DNA of 64,000 nt from Rhodovibrionaceae bacterium (GCA_040882845.1 JBBEAM010000001.1:48142-112141), one strand, 5' to 3'; positions 41,151 through 51,501 are shown, counted from the stretch's first letter. Made by a program: numbers and translations. The notes: generated from the sequence alone by a model not told the origin.

Positions 41151-43346
41151 ATGCCGCTGCTGGAACATTCACGCCTCGAGCGTTCGCGCGGCGCCACGCT
41201 GCTCAGCGCCAGGCCGGTGGTGCGCCTGCAAGGCCGCCTGACCGACGCAGCGGGCCTGGCAAGGGCCTGGCCGGAGCTGACCGCCCGGATCGAGGCGGCG
41301 ATCGCCGCCGTCGGGCTGCAGGATCTGCAGCTCCAGGCCGGGGAATCCAGCGCCGCCGAGCGTGCCCGGGAGGCCTTCGCCCAGCTCCCGCCCCGCCTCG
41401 CGCCGGAGCAGGCCTGCGCGGAAATCGGCCGGCTGCTCGCCGCCGCCGCCGCGGCGCTGATGGCCGCGGCGCGCGCGCCCCAGGGCGCCTGGGGCGCGGT
41501 CAAGGCCTCGCCGCCGGAGTTCCTCGCCTACTGGGACGACTGGATGGACGGCGTCGGCCAAGCCGCCGGGCGGGCGGCGCAGGCGCTGCTTGAGGCTGCC
41601 TACGCCCGGCCCGGGGAAGATCTGGAGGAGACGGCGAAAACCGCTCTGGCGGAGGTGCGCGGCAAGCGGGTCGACGGCTTCATCTACACCAGCGTGCGGG
41701 CCGCCGAAAGCCGCGGCATCCCCTGGCGCCTGCTCGCCCCCGGCAGCCTGCTGGTCGCCTATGGCCAGGGCCGGCGGCAGCGCTGGATCCGCGCCACGCT
41801 GAGCGACGTCCAGAGCTACGCCAGCGTGTACATCACCCTGCGCAAGGACCTGACCAGCAAGCTGCTGGCGCGGGCCGGCTTTCCGGTGCCCGAGCACCGC
41901 CTGGTCAAGAGCCGGGCGGAGGCCGCCGCCGCCGCCGAGGCGCTGGACTATCCCCTGGTGGTCAAGCCCTTGAACGGCTCGCGAGCGGAGCACGTCTCGC
42001 TCTGGCTCGACAGCCCGGAGCAGGTGGCGGAGGCTTATGCGCTCTGCGGGCCCGAGGGCACCCCGGTCCTGGTCGAATGCCAGGCTCTGGGCGAGCCCTA
42101 CCGCGTCACCGTGTTCGGCGGCCGGGCCGTCGCCGCCGGGCGGCACTCGATCCCCGCGGTGACCGGCGACGGCGTCAGCAGCATCGCCGCGCTGATCGCC
42201 GCCTGGGACGCCCGGGCGAAGCTACCGGTGGCCGATAGCTACGCCCGTTACTACCAGATCGACCGGGAGTTCTACCGCGACCAGATGACTCAGCGGCTCG
42301 AGGCGCAGGGTCTGACCCTGGAGTCCGTTCCCGAGCCGGGCCGCGAGGTGCTGCTCGGCTACCTGCCCCAGCGCGCCGGCGGCGGGCTCTACAACGACGT
42401 TACCGACCGGATCCACCCCGGCCTGATGCGGATGGCCGAGGACATTGCCACGGTGCTCGGCAGTCCCACGCTCGGCGTCGACATCATCACCCCCGACGTC
42501 GCCAAGGCGCCGGGCGAGGCGCCGCTGGCGATCAACGAGGTCAATTCCTCGCCCAGCGCCCGGGCGCACGAGCAGACCGACCAGCCCCGGCGGGTCGCTG
42601 CGCAGGCCCTGGCGGCCGTCTTTCCGGGCGAAGCGAGGAGCGTGCTGGGCGGCGATGCCGGGCGCATTCCGCTCGCCCTGTTCTACGATTTTCCCGATCC
42701 GGCGGTGCTGGACAGCCTGGAAGCCCTGCTTCAAGCGGCCGGCTGGATGCCCGGGGTCGCCGATCCGCACACGGCGCGGATCGCTGGCTACGCCCTGCAT
42801 CCCGCCGACGGCAAGCGCAGCCACCCCGGGGCGGCGGTGTTGCGCGACCGCCGCGCGGATGCCGGTATTTTTGGCGTCGTCCTCAACGATCTCAGCCGCC
42901 GCGGTCTGCCCAGCGATCACGCCGATGTCGCTGCCTTCGCGCCGGGGACGCTCGAACGGCGGGACCAACTGCTGCGCCCGGCTGCCAGCCTGCTGGCCGG
43001 CTTGCCCGGGAGCGTGCTGCTGACAGCGCCGGGAGAGGCGCCGGACTGGCTCCGCGCCGCGGCGCGACACCGCCGCTGGATCGCCGTGGCGGCGCCGGAG
43101 GCGGGAGAGACTGCGCCACCGGGGGAGGGCGAGCTGCTGCGCTGCGAGGCCGGCGCCGAGGGCCAGCGGCGGGCGGTGCTGTGCGGCGCGGGAAGCCGCG
43201 ATCTGCTCTGCGACCGGCTCGAAGAGGAGAATCCGGCGGCGCAGCTCTGGGCGCTGGCGGCGCTGCTCGGCCTCGGCTTTTCGCCCGGTGAGATCCGCCG
43301 TCTGGCGCTGCGCGCTTGGGAGGCCCGCCATGGCGTCCCGGCCTGA
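41151..43346 (+). CDS. cyanophycin synthetase-like protein A (N domain + ATP-grasp + P-loop-less Mur-ligase-like tail; CphA2-style)
   Basis: 731 aa. RAAESRGIPWRLLAPGSLLVAYGQGRRQRWIRATLSDVQSYASVYITLRKDLTSKLL parallels the CphA N/G junction. ATP-grasp blocks YPLVVKPLNGSRAEHV, VLVECQ, YRVTVFGG, AINEVNSSP. The tail begins RIPLALFYDFPDPAV, where CphA has RIPxxxVTGTNGKTT. Confidence 0.75.
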   Translation: MPLLEHSRLERSRGATLLSARPVVRLQGRLTDAAGLARAWPELTARIEAAIAAVGLQDLQLQAGESSAAERAREAFAQLPPRLAPEQACAEIGRLLAAAAAALMAAARAPQGAWGAVKASPPEFLAYWDDWMDGVGQAAGRAAQALLEAAYARPGEDLEETAKTALAEVRGKRVDGFIYTSVRAAESRGIPWRLLAPGSLLVAYGQGRRQRWIRATLSDVQSYASVYITLRKDLTSKLLARAGFPVPEHRLVKSRAEAAAAAEALDYPLVVKPLNGSRAEHVSLWLDSPEQVAEAYALCGPEGTPVLVECQALGEPYRVTVFGGRAVAAGRHSIPAVTGDGVSSIAALIAAWDARAKLPVADSYARYYQIDREFYRDQMTQRLEAQGLTLESVPEPGREVLLGYLPQRAGGGLYNDVTDRIHPGLMRMAEDIATVLGSPTLGVDIITPDVAKAPGEAPLAINEVNSSPSARAHEQTDQPRRVAAQALAAVFPGEARSVLGGDAGRIPLALFYDFPDPAVLDSLEALLQAAGWMPGVADPHTARIAGYALHPADGKRSHPGAAVLRDRRADAGIFGVVLNDLSRRGLPSDHADVAAFAPGTLERRDQLLRPAASLLAGLPGSVLLTAPGEAPDWLRAAARHRRWIAVAAPEAGETAPPGEGELLRCEAGAEGQRRAVLCGAGSRDLLCDRLEEENPAAQLWALAALLGLGFSPGEIRRLALRAWEARHGVPA

Positions 43347-45483
43347 AGCCGAGATCAAGAGCTTCCGTGGCGCCAACCTGCTGGTTGCCCGGCCCTCGAC
43401 GATGCTGGAAATGGCGGTCCCCGATTGGCCGGGACTGCAGGACGCTGCGCGGCGAAGGAAGCTGGCCGAGGCCGTGAGAACGGCCTTGAGGCTCGAGGAC
43501 AGCCAAGGGCTCTGGGCCGGTCTGGCAAGGACCGCCGAGGCCGGTCCCGCCGAATTCCTCGCGCCGCTGCTCGCCCTGACGGCATTGGGGCTGCAGCGGC
43601 GGGTTGGCCGGCGGGTAACGCGGCACCGTGCCATCGTCGTCGCTGGCGGCAGGAAGCTCGTCGCGGTCTGGGAACACTTCACCGACTTCGAGGGCAGGGC
43701 CGCCGGCCGCCAGGCCCTCGATCTGGTCCAGGATTTCGCCGGCGCGGACAGCAGCCCGGCCAAGCGCGGCGCGCGCGCCGAAAAGGCGGTGGCGGCGCTG
43801 CGCGAGGAGCTGCCCGATCCCGTCGCCGACGTGATCATGGAGGGGCTGCAGGCGCGCGGCCTGCCCTGGCGGATCTTCGACAATCAGTGGCCGGCTTTCG
43901 AGGCCGGCACCGGCTGCAAGCGTCAGCGTCTGATGACTTCGATGCCCGACAGCCAGGGTCACCTCGACCGCATGGTCTTCCGCAACAAATTCCTGGCCGG
44001 GGCGATCCTGCGCGAGGCCGGGCTGCCGATGCCGCGGCACGAGCAGGTACGCAGCGCCGCGCAGGCGCTCGCCGCGGCCGGGCGGATCGGTTACCCGGTG
44101 GTGGTCAAGCCGGTCGATTCCGGCCGTTCGAAAGGCGTCTCGGTCAATCTGCGGGATGCCTCGGCCATTCCCGAAGCCTACGCCTTCGCCCGTCAGCACG
44201 GCTCCGCCGTGCTGGTGGAACGCTTCATCCCCGGTCTTCCTTACCGCATCCTGATCCTGGAGGGGGAGGTGATCGCCGCGGCGCTGCGCGGCGTCCCTGG
44301 CGTCACCGGCGACGGCGCGCTCAGCGTAGGCCAGCTGATCGAACGCGAGAACGCCCGCCGCGAGGAGGAGAACCTCGGCCTCAGCCAGCCGCTGCCGAGG
44401 ATCAACATCGCCGCCTTCGCCGAGGAATGCGACCGCCGCCTGGCCGAGCAGGACCTGACCCTCGACGGCGTTCCCGAGGCGGGGCAGGAGGTCTGGCTGG
44501 CGCATCATGCGCAGCGCGGGCGCGGCGGCCTCAATGTCGACGTCACGGCGGAGCTGCACCCCGACCACTTCGACCTGGCGGCGCAGATCTCCGCGATCAT
44601 GCGCTGCCCGATGATCGGCATCGACTTTATCACCCAGGACATCCGCCGTTCTTTCCGGGAGGTGCCTTGCGGAATCAACGAGGTCAACATCGAGCCGGCG
44701 CTGAACCTGCATATGCGCATGACGCGTACGCCGCGCGACGTCGTGGCGCCGCTGCTCGGCAAGATCTTCCCCCGGGGCGACGACGGGCGGATTCCCATGC
44801 TGACGGTCTATGGCCCGGCGTCGGCACCGCTCGGCCTGCTGCGGCGCGCCTATGCCGCCACGGGGCGGCGTCTCGGTTTCGCGGCGGGCGAAGGCGGCAC
44901 CTGGATAGGTTCGGAGCCGCTTGCCCTCGAGGGAGGGATCGACCGCAGGATCGAAAGCCTGCTGTACGATCCCCGCGTCGAGGCGCTGCTGCTCGAGCTC
45001 TGTCTCGAGGATTTCAGACGCGGCTTCGCCTTCGATCGCAGCGAGGCGACGCTGTATCTGCACGGCCCCGGCGAGGGCGACGGCAACCGCGCCGCCTGCG
45101 TCAAGCTGCTGCGGGAGACGACTCACGGGCTCGAGATCCTGCCGCTGGAGCAGCTCGAGAGCTGGCAGGCGGAATTCGGTGCCCTGCGCGCTCCGGCGGT
45201 GCTGTTCAGCGAGGCCCTGCGGCCCGAGGGCCTCTCCGCAGCGCTGTCCGGGGGGCATAGGGTCGTCGGCACCCGCGAAGGCGCAGCGGGCTCCCTGGGC
45301 GTCTTCGCCGGCGGCCTTTTCGATCTGCTGGCCGCTCTCGGCGCCGGGGCCAGCGCGGAACTACGGCGCGAAGCGCTGCTCGCCGCCGCCGGGCTGCTCG
45401 GCCTCGGCCTCTCGATCCAGGAAACGCGCCGCTGCCTGAACGCGGCGCTGGAGGAACAGGCTCAGGAGAGGGAGGCGGAATGA
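43330..45483 (+). CDS. cyanophycin synthetase-like protein B (paralog of A; same architecture)
   Basis: 717 aa from the ATG at 43330, which lies 17 nt inside gene A. N-terminal IKSFRGANLLVARPSTMLEMAV resembles the CphA N-terminus. ATP-grasp blocks YPVVVKPVDSGRSKGV, VLVERFIPG, YRILILEGE, GINEVNIEP. Tail begins RIPMLTVYGPASAPLG (no GKT P-loop). Confidence 0.75.
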   Translation: MASRPEAEIKSFRGANLLVARPSTMLEMAVPDWPGLQDAARRRKLAEAVRTALRLEDSQGLWAGLARTAEAGPAEFLAPLLALTALGLQRRVGRRVTRHRAIVVAGGRKLVAVWEHFTDFEGRAAGRQALDLVQDFAGADSSPAKRGARAEKAVAALREELPDPVADVIMEGLQARGLPWRIFDNQWPAFEAGTGCKRQRLMTSMPDSQGHLDRMVFRNKFLAGAILREAGLPMPRHEQVRSAAQALAAAGRIGYPVVVKPVDSGRSKGVSVNLRDASAIPEAYAFARQHGSAVLVERFIPGLPYRILILEGEVIAAALRGVPGVTGDGALSVGQLIERENARREEENLGLSQPLPRINIAAFAEECDRRLAEQDLTLDGVPEAGQEVWLAHHAQRGRGGLNVDVTAELHPDHFDLAAQISAIMRCPMIGIDFITQDIRRSFREVPCGINEVNIEPALNLHMRMTRTPRDVVAPLLGKIFPRGDDGRIPMLTVYGPASAPLGLLRRAYAATGRRLGFAAGEGGTWIGSEPLALEGGIDRRIESLLYDPRVEALLLELCLEDFRRGFAFDRSEATLYLHGPGEGDGNRAACVKLLRETTHGLEILPLEQLESWQAEFGALRAPAVLFSEALRPEGLSAALSGGHRVVGTREGAAGSLGVFAGGLFDLLAALGAGASAELRREALLAAAGLLGLGLSIQETRRCLNAALEEQAQEREAE

Positions 45484-46349
45484 AGACTTGGGTTCTCGCC
45501 AACCCGCCGCCGGTTTCCGAGGACACCGCCTATCTGCTGGGGCGGGTGACCTCGCGCAGCTCGGAAGTCGTGGTCACCCAGGTCGGGGAGCTGGACCGGG
45601 AAGTGCCGCCTCCGCCGGTGGGGGTCGAGGTCATCCTCAACCGCAGCTTCAACACCCAGGCGGAATTCCTACTGGGGCTGGATGCGCTGGCCGAGCGGTG
45701 CGGCGTACGCGTCTGCAATCCCGGCGCGGCGACGCTCGCCGCCTGCGACAAGCGCAGCTACATCGCCGACTATGCCGACGTGATTCCCGAAACCCGGATT
45801 GCCGGTAGCCGCGCGGCGCTGCGGCGCGTCTGGGAGGAACTGGGCGGCGATATCGTGATCAAGGAGCCCTTCGGCAAGCACGGCAAACAGGTCGAGCGCC
45901 TGCGCGCGCCCGCCGACCTGCCGGCGGCGGAGGCGCTGCTGGCCCAATCGCGCTGCGGCGAACTCGTGGCGCAGCGCTTCTGCAGCGGTTTTCTTGCCGG
46001 CGACAAGCGGGTGATCGTGCAGCGCCGGCCGGAAGGCGGCTACGCCGCCCTGGCCTGGTTTCAGCGCGTGCCGCGCCCCGGTGGCTGGAAAAGCAACGTC
46101 AGCGCGGGGGGCAGCGTCGTGGACTGCGATCTCTCGGCCGAGGAGATGACCCTGGCCGAAGCTCTGGCGGCGCGCAGCGGACTCGACTACGTCGGGCTGG
46201 ACCTCGCCCGACACGAGAGGCGTACGCTGTTGATCGAGACCAACAGCTACACCGGCGGCCACGTGAACTTCGATATCGTGCGGCGGGAACGTACGGGAGA
46301 CATCTTCGCGGAGCTCATCGCCCATCTGGCCAGCCAGGGCCGCTCGTAG
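45480..46349 (+). CDS. GshB/RimK-type ATP-grasp ligase
   Basis: 289 aa. ATG overlaps the gene B stop (ATGA). CDKRSYI, IVIKEPFGKHGKQV, VAQRF, GDKRVIVQRR, GGWKSNVSAGGS, GLDL and LIETNSYTGG fit the glutathione synthetase/RimK ATP-grasp pattern. Confidence 0.75.
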   Translation: MKTWVLANPPPVSEDTAYLLGRVTSRSSEVVVTQVGELDREVPPPPVGVEVILNRSFNTQAEFLLGLDALAERCGVRVCNPGAATLAACDKRSYIADYADVIPETRIAGSRAALRRVWEELGGDIVIKEPFGKHGKQVERLRAPADLPAAEALLAQSRCGELVAQRFCSGFLAGDKRVIVQRRPEGGYAALAWFQRVPRPGGWKSNVSAGGSVVDCDLSAEEMTLAEALAARSGLDYVGLDLARHERRTLLIETNSYTGGHVNFDIVRRERTGDIFAELIAHLASQGRS

Positions 46350-46779: not shown

Positions 46780-47466
46780 ATGGCCTTGAAGCGGCACTTC
46801 ACGCGTGACGATCCCTACAGTCCGGCGGAGGAGATCGCCCATGCCGTGACCCATGGAATCGGCGCCGCGCTCTCCGTGGCGGCGCTGGCCGCGCTGCTGG
46901 CCCTGGCGCTGGAGCGCGGCAGCGCGACGGCGATCCTCGCGGTGGCGCTCTACGGCGGGGCGCTGATCGTCCTCTTCCTGGCGTCGACCCTGCATCACTC
47001 CCTGCCCCAGGGCCGCGCCAAGGACGCCTTCCTGGTGGCCGATCACTGCGCCATCTATCTGCTGATCGCCGGCACCTATTCCCCCTTCGCGCTGTTGGTG
47101 CTGCCGCCGGAGCTCGGCTGGATGGTTTTCGCCGCGGTTTGGGGATTGGCGGGTCTGGGGATCCTGCTCAAGCTGACCGATTCCTATCTGCTCGCCCTGC
47201 GCTGGGAGGCCGCGGTTTCCATCGTGCTTTACCTGGCCATGGGCTGGCTCGGCCTGCTGGTCGCCGGTCCGGAGCTGGTCGAGGGCCTGAGCGGCCACGG
47301 GCTGTTCTGGCTGCTCGCCGGCGGCCTGCTCTACACCCTGGGGGTCGGCTTCTACGTCTGGCGCCGCCTGCGCTTCAATCACGCGATCTGGCACTGCACC
47401 GTGCTGCTCGCCGCCGTCGCCCATTTCATTGCCGTCTACGGCTTTGTGCTGCCGGCCAAGCTGTGA
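46780..47466 (+). CDS. hemolysin III / PAQR family membrane protein
   Basis: 228 aa, seven TM helices. EEIAHAVTHGIGA at the N-terminus, STLHHS, DHCAIYLLIAGTYSPF, and the C-terminal HAIWHCTVLLAAVAHF. Confidence 0.88.
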   Translation: MALKRHFTRDDPYSPAEEIAHAVTHGIGAALSVAALAALLALALERGSATAILAVALYGGALIVLFLASTLHHSLPQGRAKDAFLVADHCAIYLLIAGTYSPFALLVLPPELGWMVFAAVWGLAGLGILLKLTDSYLLALRWEAAVSIVLYLAMGWLGLLVAGPELVEGLSGHGLFWLLAGGLLYTLGVGFYVWRRLRFNHAIWHCTVLLAAVAHFIAVYGFVLPAKL

Positions 47467-47553: not shown

Positions 47554-49407
47554 ATGATCAGGCTCGTTCTTATTGGCGCCATCCTGGCGCTTTCGAGTTG
47601 TCTTGCCGCAGCCGCCCTGGCCGCGGAGGGCGACAGCGCGGTTTACGTCGAACTGCGGCCGGAGGGCGCGGACGAGGACGCGGCGCGCGAGCGCTGGAAG
47701 CTCTACAGCGCGAGCTACGCCCTGGTCATCGGCATCGACGACTACAGCGCCGGCTGGCCGCGCCTGTCCAACGCCGTCGGCGATGCCGAGGCGGTGGCCG
47801 CGGCGCTGCGGGACCGCGGTTTTGAGGTGACCACGCTGTACAATCCCGGCGGGGACAGGCTGCGCGGCGAGCTGCGCAGCTTCTTCGCGCTCAAGGGCAG
47901 AGATCCCGAGGCGCGCCTGTTCCTCTGGTTCGCCGGCCACGGCTACAGCGAGTTCGACGAGGGCTATCTGGTGCCCGCCGACGCGCCGGACCCTGACGAT
48001 CCCGAGTTCCTGCTGCGCGCCCTGCATCTTGGCGACGTCGGGTCGATGGTCCGCATCGCGCGCTCCAAGCATGTCTTCGCGGTCTTCGACTCCTGCTTCG
48101 CCGGGACCATTTTCAACGCCAGCCGGGCGCGCCCGCCGGCCGCCATCACCCGCGCCGTGAGCGCCCCGGTGCGCCAATTCCTGACCTCCGGCGATGCCGA
48201 TCAGCAGGTCTCCGACGACGGCGCCTTCCGGCGGCTGTTCCTCAAGGCCATCGGCGGCGAGGAGAATGCCGACGCCAACGACGACGGCTATCTCACGGGC
48301 ACCGAACTGAGCCTTTTCCTCGAGGATCGCGTGGTCAATCTCACCCAGTCCCTGCAGACGCCGCGCAGCGGCAAGTTGCGCGACCAGCGCTTCGATCAGG
48401 GCGATTTCGTGTTCCTGCTGCCGCAGAGCGCGGAATCGCAGGTCGCTGCCGTCCAGCCGCAAGGCGGGTCCGGGACCGGCACCCGCGCGCTTCCGGCTGC
48501 CGATCCCGAGCTGGCCGTGGAACTGGCCTTCTGGGACGCGATCAAGGCAAGCGACAGCCCGGACGACTACACGGCCTATCTCACGGCCTATCCCGACGGG
48601 CGTTTTGCCGTGCTTGCCCAATCCCGCAGGGCGCGGCTGGAATCGGGAGCCGCCGCGCGCGAAGCCGAGCACGAACGCCTGGAAGCCGAGGCGCAGGCGC
48701 GCAGCGCCGACGAACAGCATCATCGGGCCGAGGACGAACAGCACCATCAGGCCGAAGCGGCGCGGGACGCACAGCTCGCCGCGTTGCCGCCTGCCGCGCC
48801 CCAAGTCAATCCCGAGGCGGATCCCGCTGCCCAGGAAGAAGAGGCGCTCGGCCTGACCCGCGGCGATCGCCGGGAGCTGCAGGCCGCCCTGACCGCGCTC
48901 GGCTTCGACACGCGCGGGATCGACGGGGTGTTCGGGCCCGGTACGCGCACCGCCATCCGCGGCTATCAGGCGGCCAAAGGGGCCGAGCGAAGCGGCTATC
49001 TGACCGCATCCCTGGCCGGCAGCCTGCGGGCCGAAGCGCCGCGGGCGCCGGCAGGCGAAACCCAGACGGCCGCCCGGCCGGCGCAAGCGGCGATCTCGAA
49101 AAGCGCGGCCGGAGACTACCTGCGCGCCAACGCCAGCGCCATGAAGCAGGAGCTGATGGAATACAACCAGCAGCACCGCGTGATTCACGGCAGCTACGGC
49201 GGCACCGCCGAGCGCCTCGACATCGTCTCCTGGCGGGTCGAGCAGGTGACCGGCGACGAAGCCGTGGTCGCCGTGGCCTACCGCGAGCCGATCGTCGTCC
49301 TGGCCGGCAACAGCGGGACGCAGCGCTTCCTGCTGAAGTGGGACGGGTCCGGATTTTCCTTCGTCGGCCATGAAAACGGCGGAGCCATGAGGCGCACCGG
49401 CGGCTAG
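47554..49407 (+). CDS. secreted caspase-family (peptidase C14) protein with a peptidoglycan-binding domain, paralog 1
   Basis: Signal peptide. YALVIGIDDY...LSNAVGDAEAV. Catalytic-dyad contexts WFAGHGY and VFDSCFAG. PG_binding_1-like LQAALTALGFDTRGIDGVFGPGTRTAIRGYQ. I prefer the ATG at 47554 over the GTG at 47539. Confidence 0.82.
   Translation: MIRLVLIGAILALSSCLAAAALAAEGDSAVYVELRPEGADEDAARERWKLYSASYALVIGIDDYSAGWPRLSNAVGDAEAVAAALRDRGFEVTTLYNPGGDRLRGELRSFFALKGRDPEARLFLWFAGHGYSEFDEGYLVPADAPDPDDPEFLLRALHLGDVGSMVRIARSKHVFAVFDSCFAGTIFNASRARPPAAITRAVSAPVRQFLTSGDADQQVSDDGAFRRLFLKAIGGEENADANDDGYLTGTELSLFLEDRVVNLTQSLQTPRSGKLRDQRFDQGDFVFLLPQSAESQVAAVQPQGGSGTGTRALPAADPELAVELAFWDAIKASDSPDDYTAYLTAYPDGRFAVLAQSRRARLESGAAAREAEHERLEAEAQARSADEQHHRAEDEQHHQAEAARDAQLAALPPAAPQVNPEADPAAQEEEALGLTRGDRRELQAALTALGFDTRGIDGVFGPGTRTAIRGYQAAKGAERSGYLTASLAGSLRAEAPRAPAGETQTAARPAQAAISKSAAGDYLRANASAMKQELMEYNQQHRVIHGSYGGTAERLDIVSWRVEQVTGDEAVVAVAYREPIVVLAGNSGTQRFLLKWDGSGFSFVGHENGGAMRRTGG
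48709..48756 (+). repeat. 24-nt in-frame tandem repeat x2 (DEQHHRAE / DEQHHQAE) within caspase paralog 1
   Basis: gacgaacagcatcatcgggccgag followed by gacgaacagcaccatcaggccgaa. Lies in a charged His/Glu/Gln-rich segment that has no counterpart in paralog 2. Confidence 0.8.
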
Positions 49408-49447
49408 CGGAAGCGCCGAGAAAAGGAGGGGAAGGAGGAGCAGCACT

Positions 49448-51157
49448 ATGCGATATCGCGGTCTGGCCGCCCTCTGGCTCGGCGCCGCCATAATCCTCCA
49501 GGCCGCGCCGCTCGACGCGGCCGAGACGGACAGCGCCGTCTATGTCGAACTGCGCGCGGAAGGCGCCGGCGCCGAGGGCGCGCGCGAGCGCTGGAAGCTC
49601 TACGGCGCCAGCCACGCCCTGGTCATCGGCATCGACGACTACAGCGCCGGCTGGCCGCGCTTGTCCAATGCCGTCAGGGATGCCGAAGCCGTGGCGGCGG
49701 GCCTGAAAAGCCAGGGCTTCGAGGTCGAACTGCTGCGCAATCCAGGCTCCCAGGACCTGCGCACGGCGCTGCGCGCCTTCTTCGCGCGCAAGGGCGCCGA
49801 TCCCGAGGCGCGGCTGTTCCTCTGGTATGCCGGTCACGGACACACCGAGTACGGCGAGGGCTATCTGGTGCCCTCCGACGCCCCCCTGCCCGGCGAGCCG
49901 GACTTCGCCTTCCAGGCGCTGCACCTGGGCGACGTCGGCGCGATGGTGCGCATCGCGCGCGCCAAGCACGTCTTCGCGGTGTTCGACTCCTGCTTCGCGG
50001 GCACCATCTTCAACGCCAGCCGCGCGCGCCCGCCGGCCGCCATCACCCGTGCGGTCAATGAACCGGTGCGCCAGTTCCTGACCTCCGGGGACGCCGACCA
50101 GGAAGTCTCCGACGACGGCACCTTCCGCGACCTCTTCCTGCGTGCGCTCACCGGCAAGGAGGACGCCGACGCCAACGACGACGGCTATCTCACCGGGACC
50201 GAACTGAGCCTTTTCCTCGAGGATCGCGTGATCAACCTGACCCAGTCCCTGCAGACGCCGCGCAGCGGCAAGCTGCGCGACCGCCGTTTCGACCAGGGCG
50301 ACTTCGTCTTTCTACTGCCTGGTGCGGCAGAGCGGCAGGTCGCCTCGGCGGCGGGGGGAGCGGCCCCGCCTTCCGGAACGCGCGCGCTGCCCCAAGTCGA
50401 TCCGGCATTGGCGGTCGAGCTCGCGTTCTGGCAGTCGATCCAGGCTTCGAGCAGCGCCGCCGATTACAAGGCCTATCTGGCGAGCTATCCGGAGGGGCAG
50501 TTCAGGACGCTCGCCGAGGCGCGGCTGGCCGACTTGACGGCGGCATCGGAGGACCCGCAGCTTGCCGTTTTGCCGCCTGATCCCGCGGCCCAGGTCGAAG
50601 CCGCGCTCGATTTGAGCCACGGCGAGAGGGAAGAGGTTCAGCGGGCGTTGACCGCGCTCGGCTACGATACCAAAGGGGTCGACGGCGCTTTCGGCCCCGG
50701 GACGCGGGGTGCGATCGGCGCCTATCAAGCCGCCAAGGGACTGGAACCGAACGGCTACCTGACGGCCTCGCTGTTCGGCGCGCTGATGGCCGAGACGCCG
50801 GAGACCGCGCCTCAAGCGCCGGCTGCCGCCGCGCTGCCGTCTCCTGCGGCGATCACGGCCGAGGCCTTCGATGCCTATCTCGAGAGCAATCGAAGGCGCA
50901 TGAAGGGGGGACTCGTTCGCTACAACGAGCGTCACAAGGCGATCGTCCGGGACAACGGCAGTCCCGATCTTCGCCCGCTGCGCTTCCCCACCTGGGTGCT
51001 GACCGAAGCCGACGGCGACGAGGCGCTGGTTGCCGTCGGTTACCTCGACCCCGATGCCGGGACCACTGGCAAGCAGCGGTTCCTGTTCAGATGGACCGGT
51101 ACCGAGTTCGAGGTTATCGGCCATGAGGAGAATGGAGAAATCAAGCGCGCCCGATAG
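49448..51157 (+). CDS. secreted caspase-family (peptidase C14) protein with a peptidoglycan-binding domain, paralog 2
   Basis: Strong SD (aaggaggggaaggagg). Signal peptide. HALVIGIDDY, WYAGHGH, VFDSCFAG. PG-binding block VQRALTALGYDTKGVDGAFGPGTRGAIGAYQ. Long stretches of near-identical DNA shared with paralog 1. Confidence 0.85.
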   Translation: MRYRGLAALWLGAAIILQAAPLDAAETDSAVYVELRAEGAGAEGARERWKLYGASHALVIGIDDYSAGWPRLSNAVRDAEAVAAGLKSQGFEVELLRNPGSQDLRTALRAFFARKGADPEARLFLWYAGHGHTEYGEGYLVPSDAPLPGEPDFAFQALHLGDVGAMVRIARAKHVFAVFDSCFAGTIFNASRARPPAAITRAVNEPVRQFLTSGDADQEVSDDGTFRDLFLRALTGKEDADANDDGYLTGTELSLFLEDRVINLTQSLQTPRSGKLRDRRFDQGDFVFLLPGAAERQVASAAGGAAPPSGTRALPQVDPALAVELAFWQSIQASSSAADYKAYLASYPEGQFRTLAEARLADLTAASEDPQLAVLPPDPAAQVEAALDLSHGEREEVQRALTALGYDTKGVDGAFGPGTRGAIGAYQAAKGLEPNGYLTASLFGALMAETPETAPQAPAAAALPSPAAITAEAFDAYLESNRRRMKGGLVRYNERHKAIVRDNGSPDLRPLRFPTWVLTEADGDEALVAVGYLDPDAGTTGKQRFLFRWTGTEFEVIGHEENGEIKRAR

Positions 51158-51198: not shown

Positions 51199-51501
51199 AT
51201 GAAGCTATCGTGGATTGGCCTGTGTCTCGCCGCGATCCTGGCCGGCGGCCTTCTGGCGGGGAGTGCGGAAGTGGCCTCCGAGCCGCTCGACATTTCCGGC
51301 CGCTGCTTGACCTCACCCGAGGCTTCCAGCGATGTGCCGCTTCAGATGGCCCGCATGGATCCTTCGAAATGCGTCATCTGGTGCAAGATCAAGCGCGGGA
51401 ACTGCGCCGAGGACTGTGCGGCCTCCGCCGGCGACAAGCTGAAGTCCTGCAAGGAGGGCTGTCGCGCAACCTTCGAGGCCTGCATGCAAAGCTGCAGCTA
51501 G
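51199..51501 (+). CDS. small secreted cysteine-rich protein (100 aa) with four CX3C motifs
   Basis: ATG at 51199 after gagaagaaaa. Signal peptide MKLSWIGLCLAAILAGGLLAGSA. The mature part contains CVIWC, CAEDC, CKEGC and CMQSC plus one further Cys. Sits 41 nt downstream of caspase paralog 2 on the same strand. Confidence 0.55.
   Translation: MKLSWIGLCLAAILAGGLLAGSAEVASEPLDISGRCLTSPEASSDVPLQMARMDPSKCVIWCKIKRGNCAEDCAASAGDKLKSCKEGCRATFEACMQSCS

Follow-up and report, generated by a model that had tools for sequence, protein, structure and literature searches.

Two adjacent genes in a stretch of 64,000 nucleotides from Rhodovibrionaceae bacterium, an alphaproteobacterium of marine type (GCA_040882845.1, JBBEAM010000001.1:48142-112141) are the subject of the present analysis; the stretch is referred to as the window, positions are counted from its first letter, and all window features for which coordinates are given lie on the plus strand unless only a gene order is described. 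Gene 1 (47554-49407) and gene 2 (49448-51157), delineated by open reading frame (ORF) calls and Pfam searches, encode proteins of 617 and 569 residues, respectively. Both products are apparently active, exported caspase-like proteases (orthocaspases) with a PG_binding_1 domain; that of gene 1 ends in a C-terminal domain of the type designated class A below, and that of gene 2 is an AGHGH-type protein in which the coiled-coil spacer of its neighbor is missing. The genes are separated by 40 nt, within which an AGGAGG ribosome-binding site precedes gene 2, and their products are 60% identical across 606 alignment columns (BLASTP, E = 0). These data confirm the tandem of same-strand paralogs proposed in a preliminary description of this DNA, and the shared motifs listed there are all found, i.e., AGHGY and AGHGH, FDSCFAG, ELAFW..I.AS....DY.AYL..YP.G.F, the conserved AE(G/T)DSAVYVELR motif after the hydrophobic N-terminus (AAEGDSAVYVELR in gene 1 and AAETDSAVYVELR in gene 2), and a C-terminal ending of the RFL...GHEN type (RFLLKWDGSGFSFVGHEN and RFLFRWTGTEFEVIGHEEN). 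The observation is real, and both genes had been read correctly at the level of protein identity. The G+C content of the window is ~70%, and the locus shows no GC anomaly.

Both proteins match Peptidase_C14 (PF00656) well above its gathering cut-off of 21.4 bits (gene 1, E 1.6e-16, 61.2 bits; gene 2, E 4.3e-18, 66.3 bits), as does a second tandem pair on contig C7 of the same genome; both genes also exceed the cut-off for PG_binding_1, and the two family assignments made earlier thus hold. The caspase-fold domain occupies 47689-48420 in gene 1 (Pfam match at residues 55-205, alignment with gene 2, limits taken from the gene 2 model) and 49586-50317 in gene 2 (AlphaFold model, MALT1 alignment and Foldseek). 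The catalytic residues are assigned to His129 (codon 47938-47940) and Cys181 (codon 48094-48096) in gene 1, and to His130 (codon 49835-49837) and Cys182 (codon 49991-49993) in gene 2. In a sequence search of the Protein Data Bank (PDB), the MALT1 paracaspase ranks first, with FLWYAGHGHTEYGEGYLVPSDAP aligned on LLYYAGHGYENFGNSFMVPVDAP and His130 of gene 2 aligned with the catalytic His415 of the MALT1 AGHGY motif; a profile built from 63 family members likewise matches MALT1 (E 6e-11), with AGHG placed over the catalytic AGHGY.

The AlphaFold2 model, which was built for gene 2 only and on an alignment of the 63 family members, has a mean predicted local distance difference test (pLDDT) score of 86. 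In this model Cys182 closes strand 174-182 (HVFAVFDSC), the fourth core strand, within the Pfam-aligned region. A Foldseek comparison of the model with the PDB returns MALT1 at E 9e-13 over ~250 aligned columns, with a TM (template modeling) score of 0.72 to the isolated 234-residue MALT1 caspase domain (3v4o_A), followed by fungal and trypanosome metacaspases, caspase-7, caspase-11 and Geobacter GSU0716. Because these matches span it, a complete caspase fold is present, despite a Pfam match limited in both genes to profile positions 3-131 of 233. The His motif is kept in 119 of the 120 best relatives and the D-x-C motif in 117 of them; together with the alignment on the MALT1 catalytic His and the modeled position of the Cys, which closes the fourth core strand, this bears out the intact His/Cys dyad of the preliminary description. 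The Cys is followed by a conserved R-A-R-P-P loop.

By current naming the two proteins are orthocaspases, and as cysteine endopeptidases they fall within clan CD and its MEROPS family C14. Orthocaspases are defined as prokaryotic proteins that contain a p20 region with the His/Cys dyad and no p10 region detectable with hidden Markov models (HMMs) (Klemencic et al. 2019, PMC6426788), and the end of the Pfam match at profile position 131 in both genes agrees with this definition. They are not paracaspases, because they lack immunoglobulin (Ig) domains (neither Ig nor death-domain matches were found with Pfam), nor are they type I metacaspases, since both a p10 HMM match and a prodomain are missing, the N-terminus being a signal peptide. 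A combination of metacaspase and peptidoglycan (PG)-binding domains has been catalogued before, in 11 sequences (1.6%), with mention of likely signal peptides (Asplund-Samuelsson et al. 2012, PMC3501461). The proteins hence belong to a catalogued, functionally unstudied kind, of which they are a new and well-delimited member with a rare new C-terminal domain.

Compared with other prokaryotic orthocaspases (MEROPS C14B), the proteins share the p20 region with the His/Cys dyad, the conserved Asp of a putative acidic pocket, the absence of an HMM-detectable p10 and the presence of added C-terminal domains, but differ in their predicted Sec export, N-terminal hairpin, EF-hand-type loop, conserved helical element and rare C-terminal domain. 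Microcystis MaOC1, to our knowledge the one prokaryotic orthocaspase that has been studied biochemically, is cyanobacterial and has another architecture. MALT1 (PDB codes 3v4o, 3uo8, 4i1p) is the best match by both sequence and fold; it has the D-x-C motif and the upstream pocket Asp in common with the present proteins, and the surroundings of the catalytic His, AGHG(Y/H)..G..(Y/F)(L/M)VP.DAP, are near-identical. MALT1, however, is a cytoplasmic eukaryotic signaling protease activated by dimerization, whereas gene 1 and gene 2 encode bacterial, exported proteins without death or Ig domains. Type I metacaspases (Yca1, 4f6o; T. brucei MCA2, 4afv; Candida glabrata, 7qp0) resemble them in the caspase fold, in the expected cleavage after basic residues and in a putative tie to calcium, but the present proteins show no p10 HMM match and no Pro-rich or zinc-finger prodomain, and their putative Ca2+ site is of the EF type and not the metacaspase Asp cluster. 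The fifth strand is followed in this family by an SG-D-x-D-Q-x-x-S-D-D stretch, which we take to resemble the SGCxDxQTSAD region of metacaspases.

Candidate S1-pocket residues in gene 2 are Asp78 and Asp180, both of which are invariant in the family alignment. In the alignment with MALT1, Asp78 falls on an upstream Asp, and Asp180-x-Cys182 parallels the D-x-C motif; we count the MALT1 counterparts as Asp365 and Asp462-x-Cys464, the two Asp positions being those that bind the P1 arginine in MALT1. Because Asp78 and Asp180 match these arginine-pocket positions, we infer a preference for Arg or Lys at P1 for both enzymes.

The protease domain also contains a putative EF-hand-type loop, found by pattern match at 48271-48306 in gene 1 (DANDDGYLTGTE) and at 50168-50203 in gene 2 (D241-A-N-D-D-G-Y-L-T-G-T-E252), where it sits between helices 225-234 and 250-264 of the model. 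The 12-residue pattern D-x-[DNS]-x-[DENSTG]-G-x-[LIV]-x-x-x-[DE], which we take to correspond to the PROSITE EF-hand loop, matches residues 241-253 of gene 2 and 115 of 120 relatives, and the loop is nearly invariant. At E-values of 0.45 to 1.4, this stretch of gene 2 also matches secretagogin and a dockerin. Because these matches are weak, and because Pfam EF-hand models miss the loop, the binding of Ca2+ at this site is put forward as a hypothesis.

Predicted signal peptides cover 47554-47625 in gene 1 (~24 residues, MIRLVLIGAILALSSCLAAAALAA) and 49448-49522 in gene 2 (~25 residues, MRYRGLAALWLGAAIILQAAPLDAA), both recognized by sequence. Each N-terminus carries positive charge, then a hydrophobic segment, small residues and (A)E(T/G)DSAVYVEL, and the layout is found family-wide: a strongly hydrophobic segment is present in 62 of the 65 family members with a complete N-terminus, and A-x-A followed by the conserved ETDS motif recurs throughout. 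Sec-type export is predicted for both proteins, in line with the signal peptides of the preliminary description; neither a failure of the C14 profile, nor a misaligned dyad, nor a lack of export signals was encountered. A reading of gene 1 as a lipoprotein, with LSSC as the lipobox, is not supported, the Cys being missing in the ortholog G1_C2a and in other family members. The catalytic Cys is the sole Cys of both mature proteins and of all family cores (79 of 79). L,D-transpeptidases, which are periplasmic enzymes with a free catalytic thiol, likewise have a single catalytic Cys. Throughout the family, the modules joined to the C-terminal side of the protease are without exception extracytoplasmic and binding in nature, namely PG_binding_1, SH3_3, Sel1, FGE-sulfatase and TPR, and we infer that gene 1 and gene 2 proteins are retained in the periplasm.

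Export would also suit a different role, in which the proteins are true exoproteases that leave the cell through the outer membrane, e.g., inside vesicles or with the help of a type II system, and obtain nutrients by breaking down external protein, as has been speculated for metacaspases of aquatic bacteria. Extracellular protein degradation by bacterial metacaspases has been speculated on in a survey (PMC4933709). The signal peptides of both proteins and the concentration of the family in marine and aquatic metagenome-assembled genomes (MAGs) fit with such a role, which we nevertheless regard as unlikely. Caspase-type enzymes are generally dedicated to narrow-specificity processing and not to bulk degradation, the PG_binding_1 domains here, like the SH3_3 or Sel1 domains of relatives, suggest that the proteins are kept on the wall of the cell that makes them, and no secretion-system genes adjoin the pair among the ORFs and Pfam matches of the window.

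The PG_binding_1 domain (PF01471, cut-off 23 bits) lies at 48859-49011 in gene 1 (residues 436-486, E 9.4e-11, 42.2 bits) and at 50618-50785 in gene 2 (residues 391-446, E 6.3e-13, 49.1 bits), and the gene 2 region aligns with the PG-binding domain of the lytic transglycosylase SltB3 (5anz). Both are predicted peptidoglycan-binding domains. A signal peptide and PG_binding_1 combined with a catalytic domain whose only Cys is free and catalytic are also seen in L,D-transpeptidases of the YkuD family, although the catalytic fold and chemistry of the latter are unrelated. A Cys/His enzyme that is joined to a PG-binding domain and has an acidic pocket able to hold an amino-bearing side chain could, in principle, act on the cell wall or on wall-bound proteins, either by releasing or attaching PG-linked outer-membrane proteins or by cutting or cross-linking stem peptides at the basic residue, diaminopimelate or Lys. 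Legumain and glycosylphosphatidylinositol (GPI) transamidase, which are also clan-CD enzymes, can transpeptidate, and gammaproteobacterial relatives have a lytic transglycosylase and a PG_binding_1/Sel1 protein nearby. That neighborhood signal, however, stems from closely related genomes and may be mere synteny, and we know of no C14 enzyme that acts on peptidoglycan. We therefore consider this role very improbable.

In both mature proteins the caspase fold is preceded by a short beta-hairpin (DSAVYVEL...ERWKLYG). An ELAFW helical element is located at 48505-48651 in gene 1 and at 50402-50551 in gene 2, where the model has three helices. This element is kept across the family irrespective of the C-terminal domains, with F, W, S, Y, P, G, F, L and A near-invariant among 63 sequences, and finds no match in Pfam or NCBIfam even at E = 10. 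Gene 1 alone contains a Glu/His/Ala-rich helical spacer at 48652-48798, recognized as an alignment gap and missing from gene 2. The spacer includes an in-frame tandem repeat of 2 x 24 nt at 48709-48755 (DEQHHRAE / DEQHHQAE; Tandem Repeats Finder, period 24, 2 copies, 91% matches), and its length among paralogs ranges from 0 to >150 residues.

The C-terminal domain comprises ~105 residues, at 49090-49404 in gene 1 (an unnamed alpha+beta domain of class A, from the family profile search and tree) and at 50852-51154 in gene 2, where two helices are followed by a five-stranded antiparallel sheet that is modeled with pLDDT values of 84 to 95. It has no Pfam or NCBIfam match even at E = 10, and Foldseek returned no significant fold match in the PDB; the best comparisons, with NTF2-like folds (AtzH, MlaC/Ttg2D-type, DUF3225), are below significance at E 0.06 and a TM score of ~0.35. 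The proposal of a C-terminal domain without a known family is thus borne out. When 1.84 billion proteins were searched with a profile of the domain, no more than 60 representative clusters were retrieved, and a sample of 300 further genomes from across the class did not contain it. In proteins that look exported, the domain stands by itself, is repeated in tandem or is joined to other regions without a name, and the gene 2 version is also kept in orthologs of two other assemblies. Two exported proteins, P0126 and P0140, carry one or two copies of a domain of this type at the N-terminus, followed by repeats of a Cys module, C..N.Y....PCP..., that has no Pfam family. Three caspase-family relatives, P0002, P0010 and P0017, have two tandem C-terminal domains, each preceded by the linker QTQTAALPP.PAVS.

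The genome holds four genes of this kind, arranged as two tandem pairs, i.e., the window pair and the contig C7 pair, which has the same architecture and other neighbors. The second pair (G000 contig C7:351197-355191; locus L005:6198-10192) encodes proteins of 632 and ~661 residues, the latter counted from an internal start, and is flanked by genes for an ATPase-inhibitor zeta subunit and an adenylosuccinate lyase. Among 40 relatives from the same family and order, close homologs are found only in a same-genus genome (an uncultured alphaproteobacterial MAG, hereafter the sister species), which has a syntenic locus with three copies (L007:5926-12043, contig CALNZX010000002.1) and a second locus with two. 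The protease core of the middle paralog at the syntenic locus is orthologous to gene 2, but it is joined to a greatly extended Glu/Arg/Ala coiled coil and to an unrelated C-terminus, which points to domain swapping.

Beyond these two species, relatives are encoded in 364 stretches (one genome per species), mostly from marine MAGs of Alpha- and Gammaproteobacteria, several of which hold four to six unlinked family copies. Tandem copies are infrequent, at 4 of 72 loci in a motif-based count; a tandem arrangement as a general family trait was rejected, the figure of 27 of 75 loci obtained by single-linkage clustering being inflated via shared Sel1 and PG-binding domains. At 18 Pseudomonadales MAG loci (e.g., L018, L020, L021, L031, L039, L046, L076) the gene arrangement is shared: a C14-SH3_3-Sel1 protein of ~900 residues is encoded convergently with a Sel1/PG_binding_1/TPR protein of 450 residues and a Cys-containing secreted protein of ~385 residues that has no known family. 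The 450-residue neighbor had been considered as a caspase and was discarded as such. Mla-like ABC genes, a GNA1162-like lipoprotein and sometimes an MltC-like lytic transglycosylase are encoded near these loci.

A tree of the protease cores unites the nine paralogs of the two species with ten metagenome proteins in a single clade (support 100/96), inside which gene 2, its ortholog G1_C2b and P0003 make up a distinct old lineage (100/97). The tree of the C-terminal domains has two deep classes, A and B, of which canonical pairs carry one each, and places the gene 2 domain as a long branch within class A. Because the two trees conflict on partners, domain shuffling among the paralogs is suggested. 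The origin of the pair by duplication, as stated in the preliminary description, is supported with the qualification that it is old: the sister species has a separate ortholog for each of the two copies, and the duplication therefore precedes the split of the two species. A recent duplication is rejected on these grounds and on the recurrence of the identical DNA runs described below in all nine paralogs. The ratio of nonsynonymous to synonymous substitution (dN/dS) relative to orthologs is 0.15 to 0.29 in every domain (gene 1, 0.26; gene 2, 0.15 to 0.29), and because it is this low both copies are taken to be maintained, functional genes. Recent horizontal transfer was rejected in view of the absence of a GC anomaly and the preserved synteny with the sister species; the absence of the family from the other 39 relatives examined points in the other direction.

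The identical DNA reported earlier is present, i.e., 47719-47763 equals 49616-49660 as part of a run of 47 nt (47717-47763 and 49614-49660), and 48301-48333 equals 50198-50230; further runs identical between gene 1 and gene 2 measure 24 to 33 nt each. The same runs are almost as identical across all nine paralogs, and between species too. Because the near-identity extends this far, the long identical runs are due mainly to amino-acid constraint and GC-rich codon bias. A quartet site test over the whole gene yields 88 sites for orthology, 47 for within-genome grouping of paralogs and 41 for the third grouping, and wholesale gene conversion is rejected on the excess of orthology sites (88 versus 47). 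Within 48262-48351, however, 8 sites favor the paralog grouping, 1 favors orthology and 0 the third grouping, which identifies a probable gene-conversion tract of ~90 nt with its partner at 50159-50248 in gene 2. The synonymous divergence of the protease cores is 0.51 between gene 1 and gene 2, and 0.59 and 0.70 between orthologs. Limited gene conversion between the genes is plausible, and of the conversion considered in the preliminary description this one tract stands, the remaining identical runs being put down to constraint and codon bias.

Upstream of the pair, a gene for an HlyIII-family membrane protein (46780-47466; Pfam HlyIII, E 9e-35) ends 87 nt before gene 1, and its position is retained in the sister-species locus L007; it is a syntenic neighbor with no demonstrated functional tie to the caspase pair. 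Three co-oriented ATP-grasp/cyanophycin-synthetase-like genes lie farther upstream (41151-46349), and synteny with the sister species extends to these as well. Such surroundings bear on the possibility that the proteins act as effectors of cell death or against phages, in the manner of the caspase-like proteases that work in the cytoplasm as part of gasdermin, CHAT and other defense systems. Older literature ties bacterial metacaspases to programmed cell death (PMC3501461), and the generic PADLOC 'caspase' model gives a match, albeit a partial one (E 1e-12 to 1e-15). On the other hand, the more specific NCBIfam model caspase_w_EACC1 scores 47 to 54 bits, far below its cut-off of 140, its partner genes were not found, and no gasdermin, NACHT, TIR or other defense partners adjoin the caspase-like genes. 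The known defense caspases are, moreover, cytoplasmic, whereas gene 1 and gene 2 proteins carry export signals, and the GC content is normal and the synteny in the sister species is with housekeeping-type genes. A role in defense is accordingly judged extremely unlikely.

Downstream of gene 2, a small exported protein of 100 residues that has four CX3C motifs in addition to its signal peptide is encoded at 51199-51501 (ATG at 51199), which agrees with the co-oriented Cys-rich secreted ORF of the preliminary description. It has no Pfam or NCBIfam match even at E = 10, and only 3 homologs among 5.8 billion proteins, in addition to an uncalled copy at the syntenic locus of the sister species that was detected by translated search and keeps all 9 mature Cys. 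Each copy with examinable neighbors sits between the last caspase paralog and genes for DUF1330, SDR and amine-oxidase proteins, whereas the small protein is missing at the C7 pair and at 70 or more other family loci. Because every examinable copy shares one inherited synteny, linkage is inseparable from shared descent. The small protein as a conserved partner was consequently rejected, and it is, as judged from these searches, a lineage-restricted orphan; the Cys-rich neighbor exists, but the dedicated envelope proteolytic module that had been built on it is unsupported.

Taken as a whole, the data are best explained by gene 1 and gene 2 encoding periplasmic, peptidoglycan-tethered, Arg/Lys-specific cysteine endopeptidases, which we consider a probable assignment. 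The enzymes would stay in the periplasm, anchored to murein by PG_binding_1, and any substrate would be an envelope protein, cut after Arg or Lys. Ca2+ would be bound at the EF-type loop, and the variable C-terminal domain may direct the enzymes to their target or bind a ligand or a partner. As for its history, the pair stems from old duplications maintained by purifying selection, probably accompanied by a reshuffling of domains and by sporadic conversion of short tracts between copies. Several points weigh against this assignment. The Pfam C14 match stops short of the C-terminal half of the caspase fold, for which the model is the only source, and the Pfam EF-hand models recognize the loop in neither protein. 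Inspection and family-wide conservation are the sole basis of the predicted Sec-type export, and secretion past the outer membrane would be possible even for a murein-binding protein, because PG_binding_1 domains are also found in proteins that leave the periplasm. Finally, the literature yielded bioinformatic surveys of the family only, and none of the papers found dealt with the function of an exported member that has a PG-binding domain.

A more far-reaching proposal is that the tandem pairs are functional units in which the class-A and class-B C-terminal domains heterodimerize or bind a ligand, thereby uniting two PG-anchored caspase domains that, in a Ca2+-dependent manner, would sense an envelope signal and cut envelope or wall-linked proteins. 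We give this little credence at present; if true, the paired units would operate in the periplasm much as caspases or MALT1 do when activated by induced proximity. By itself the locus reveals no new mechanism. Bacteria encode thousands of caspase homologs, almost none of which have a known substrate or role. To these the locus adds a defined family, in which a genome has two to five paralogs that look active, one protein is modeled over its full length, and the invariant residues can be named (the dyad, the two Asp of the putative pocket, the EF-type loop and the single Cys). It also contributes a rare new extracytoplasmic domain, and provides a reasonable start for biochemistry.

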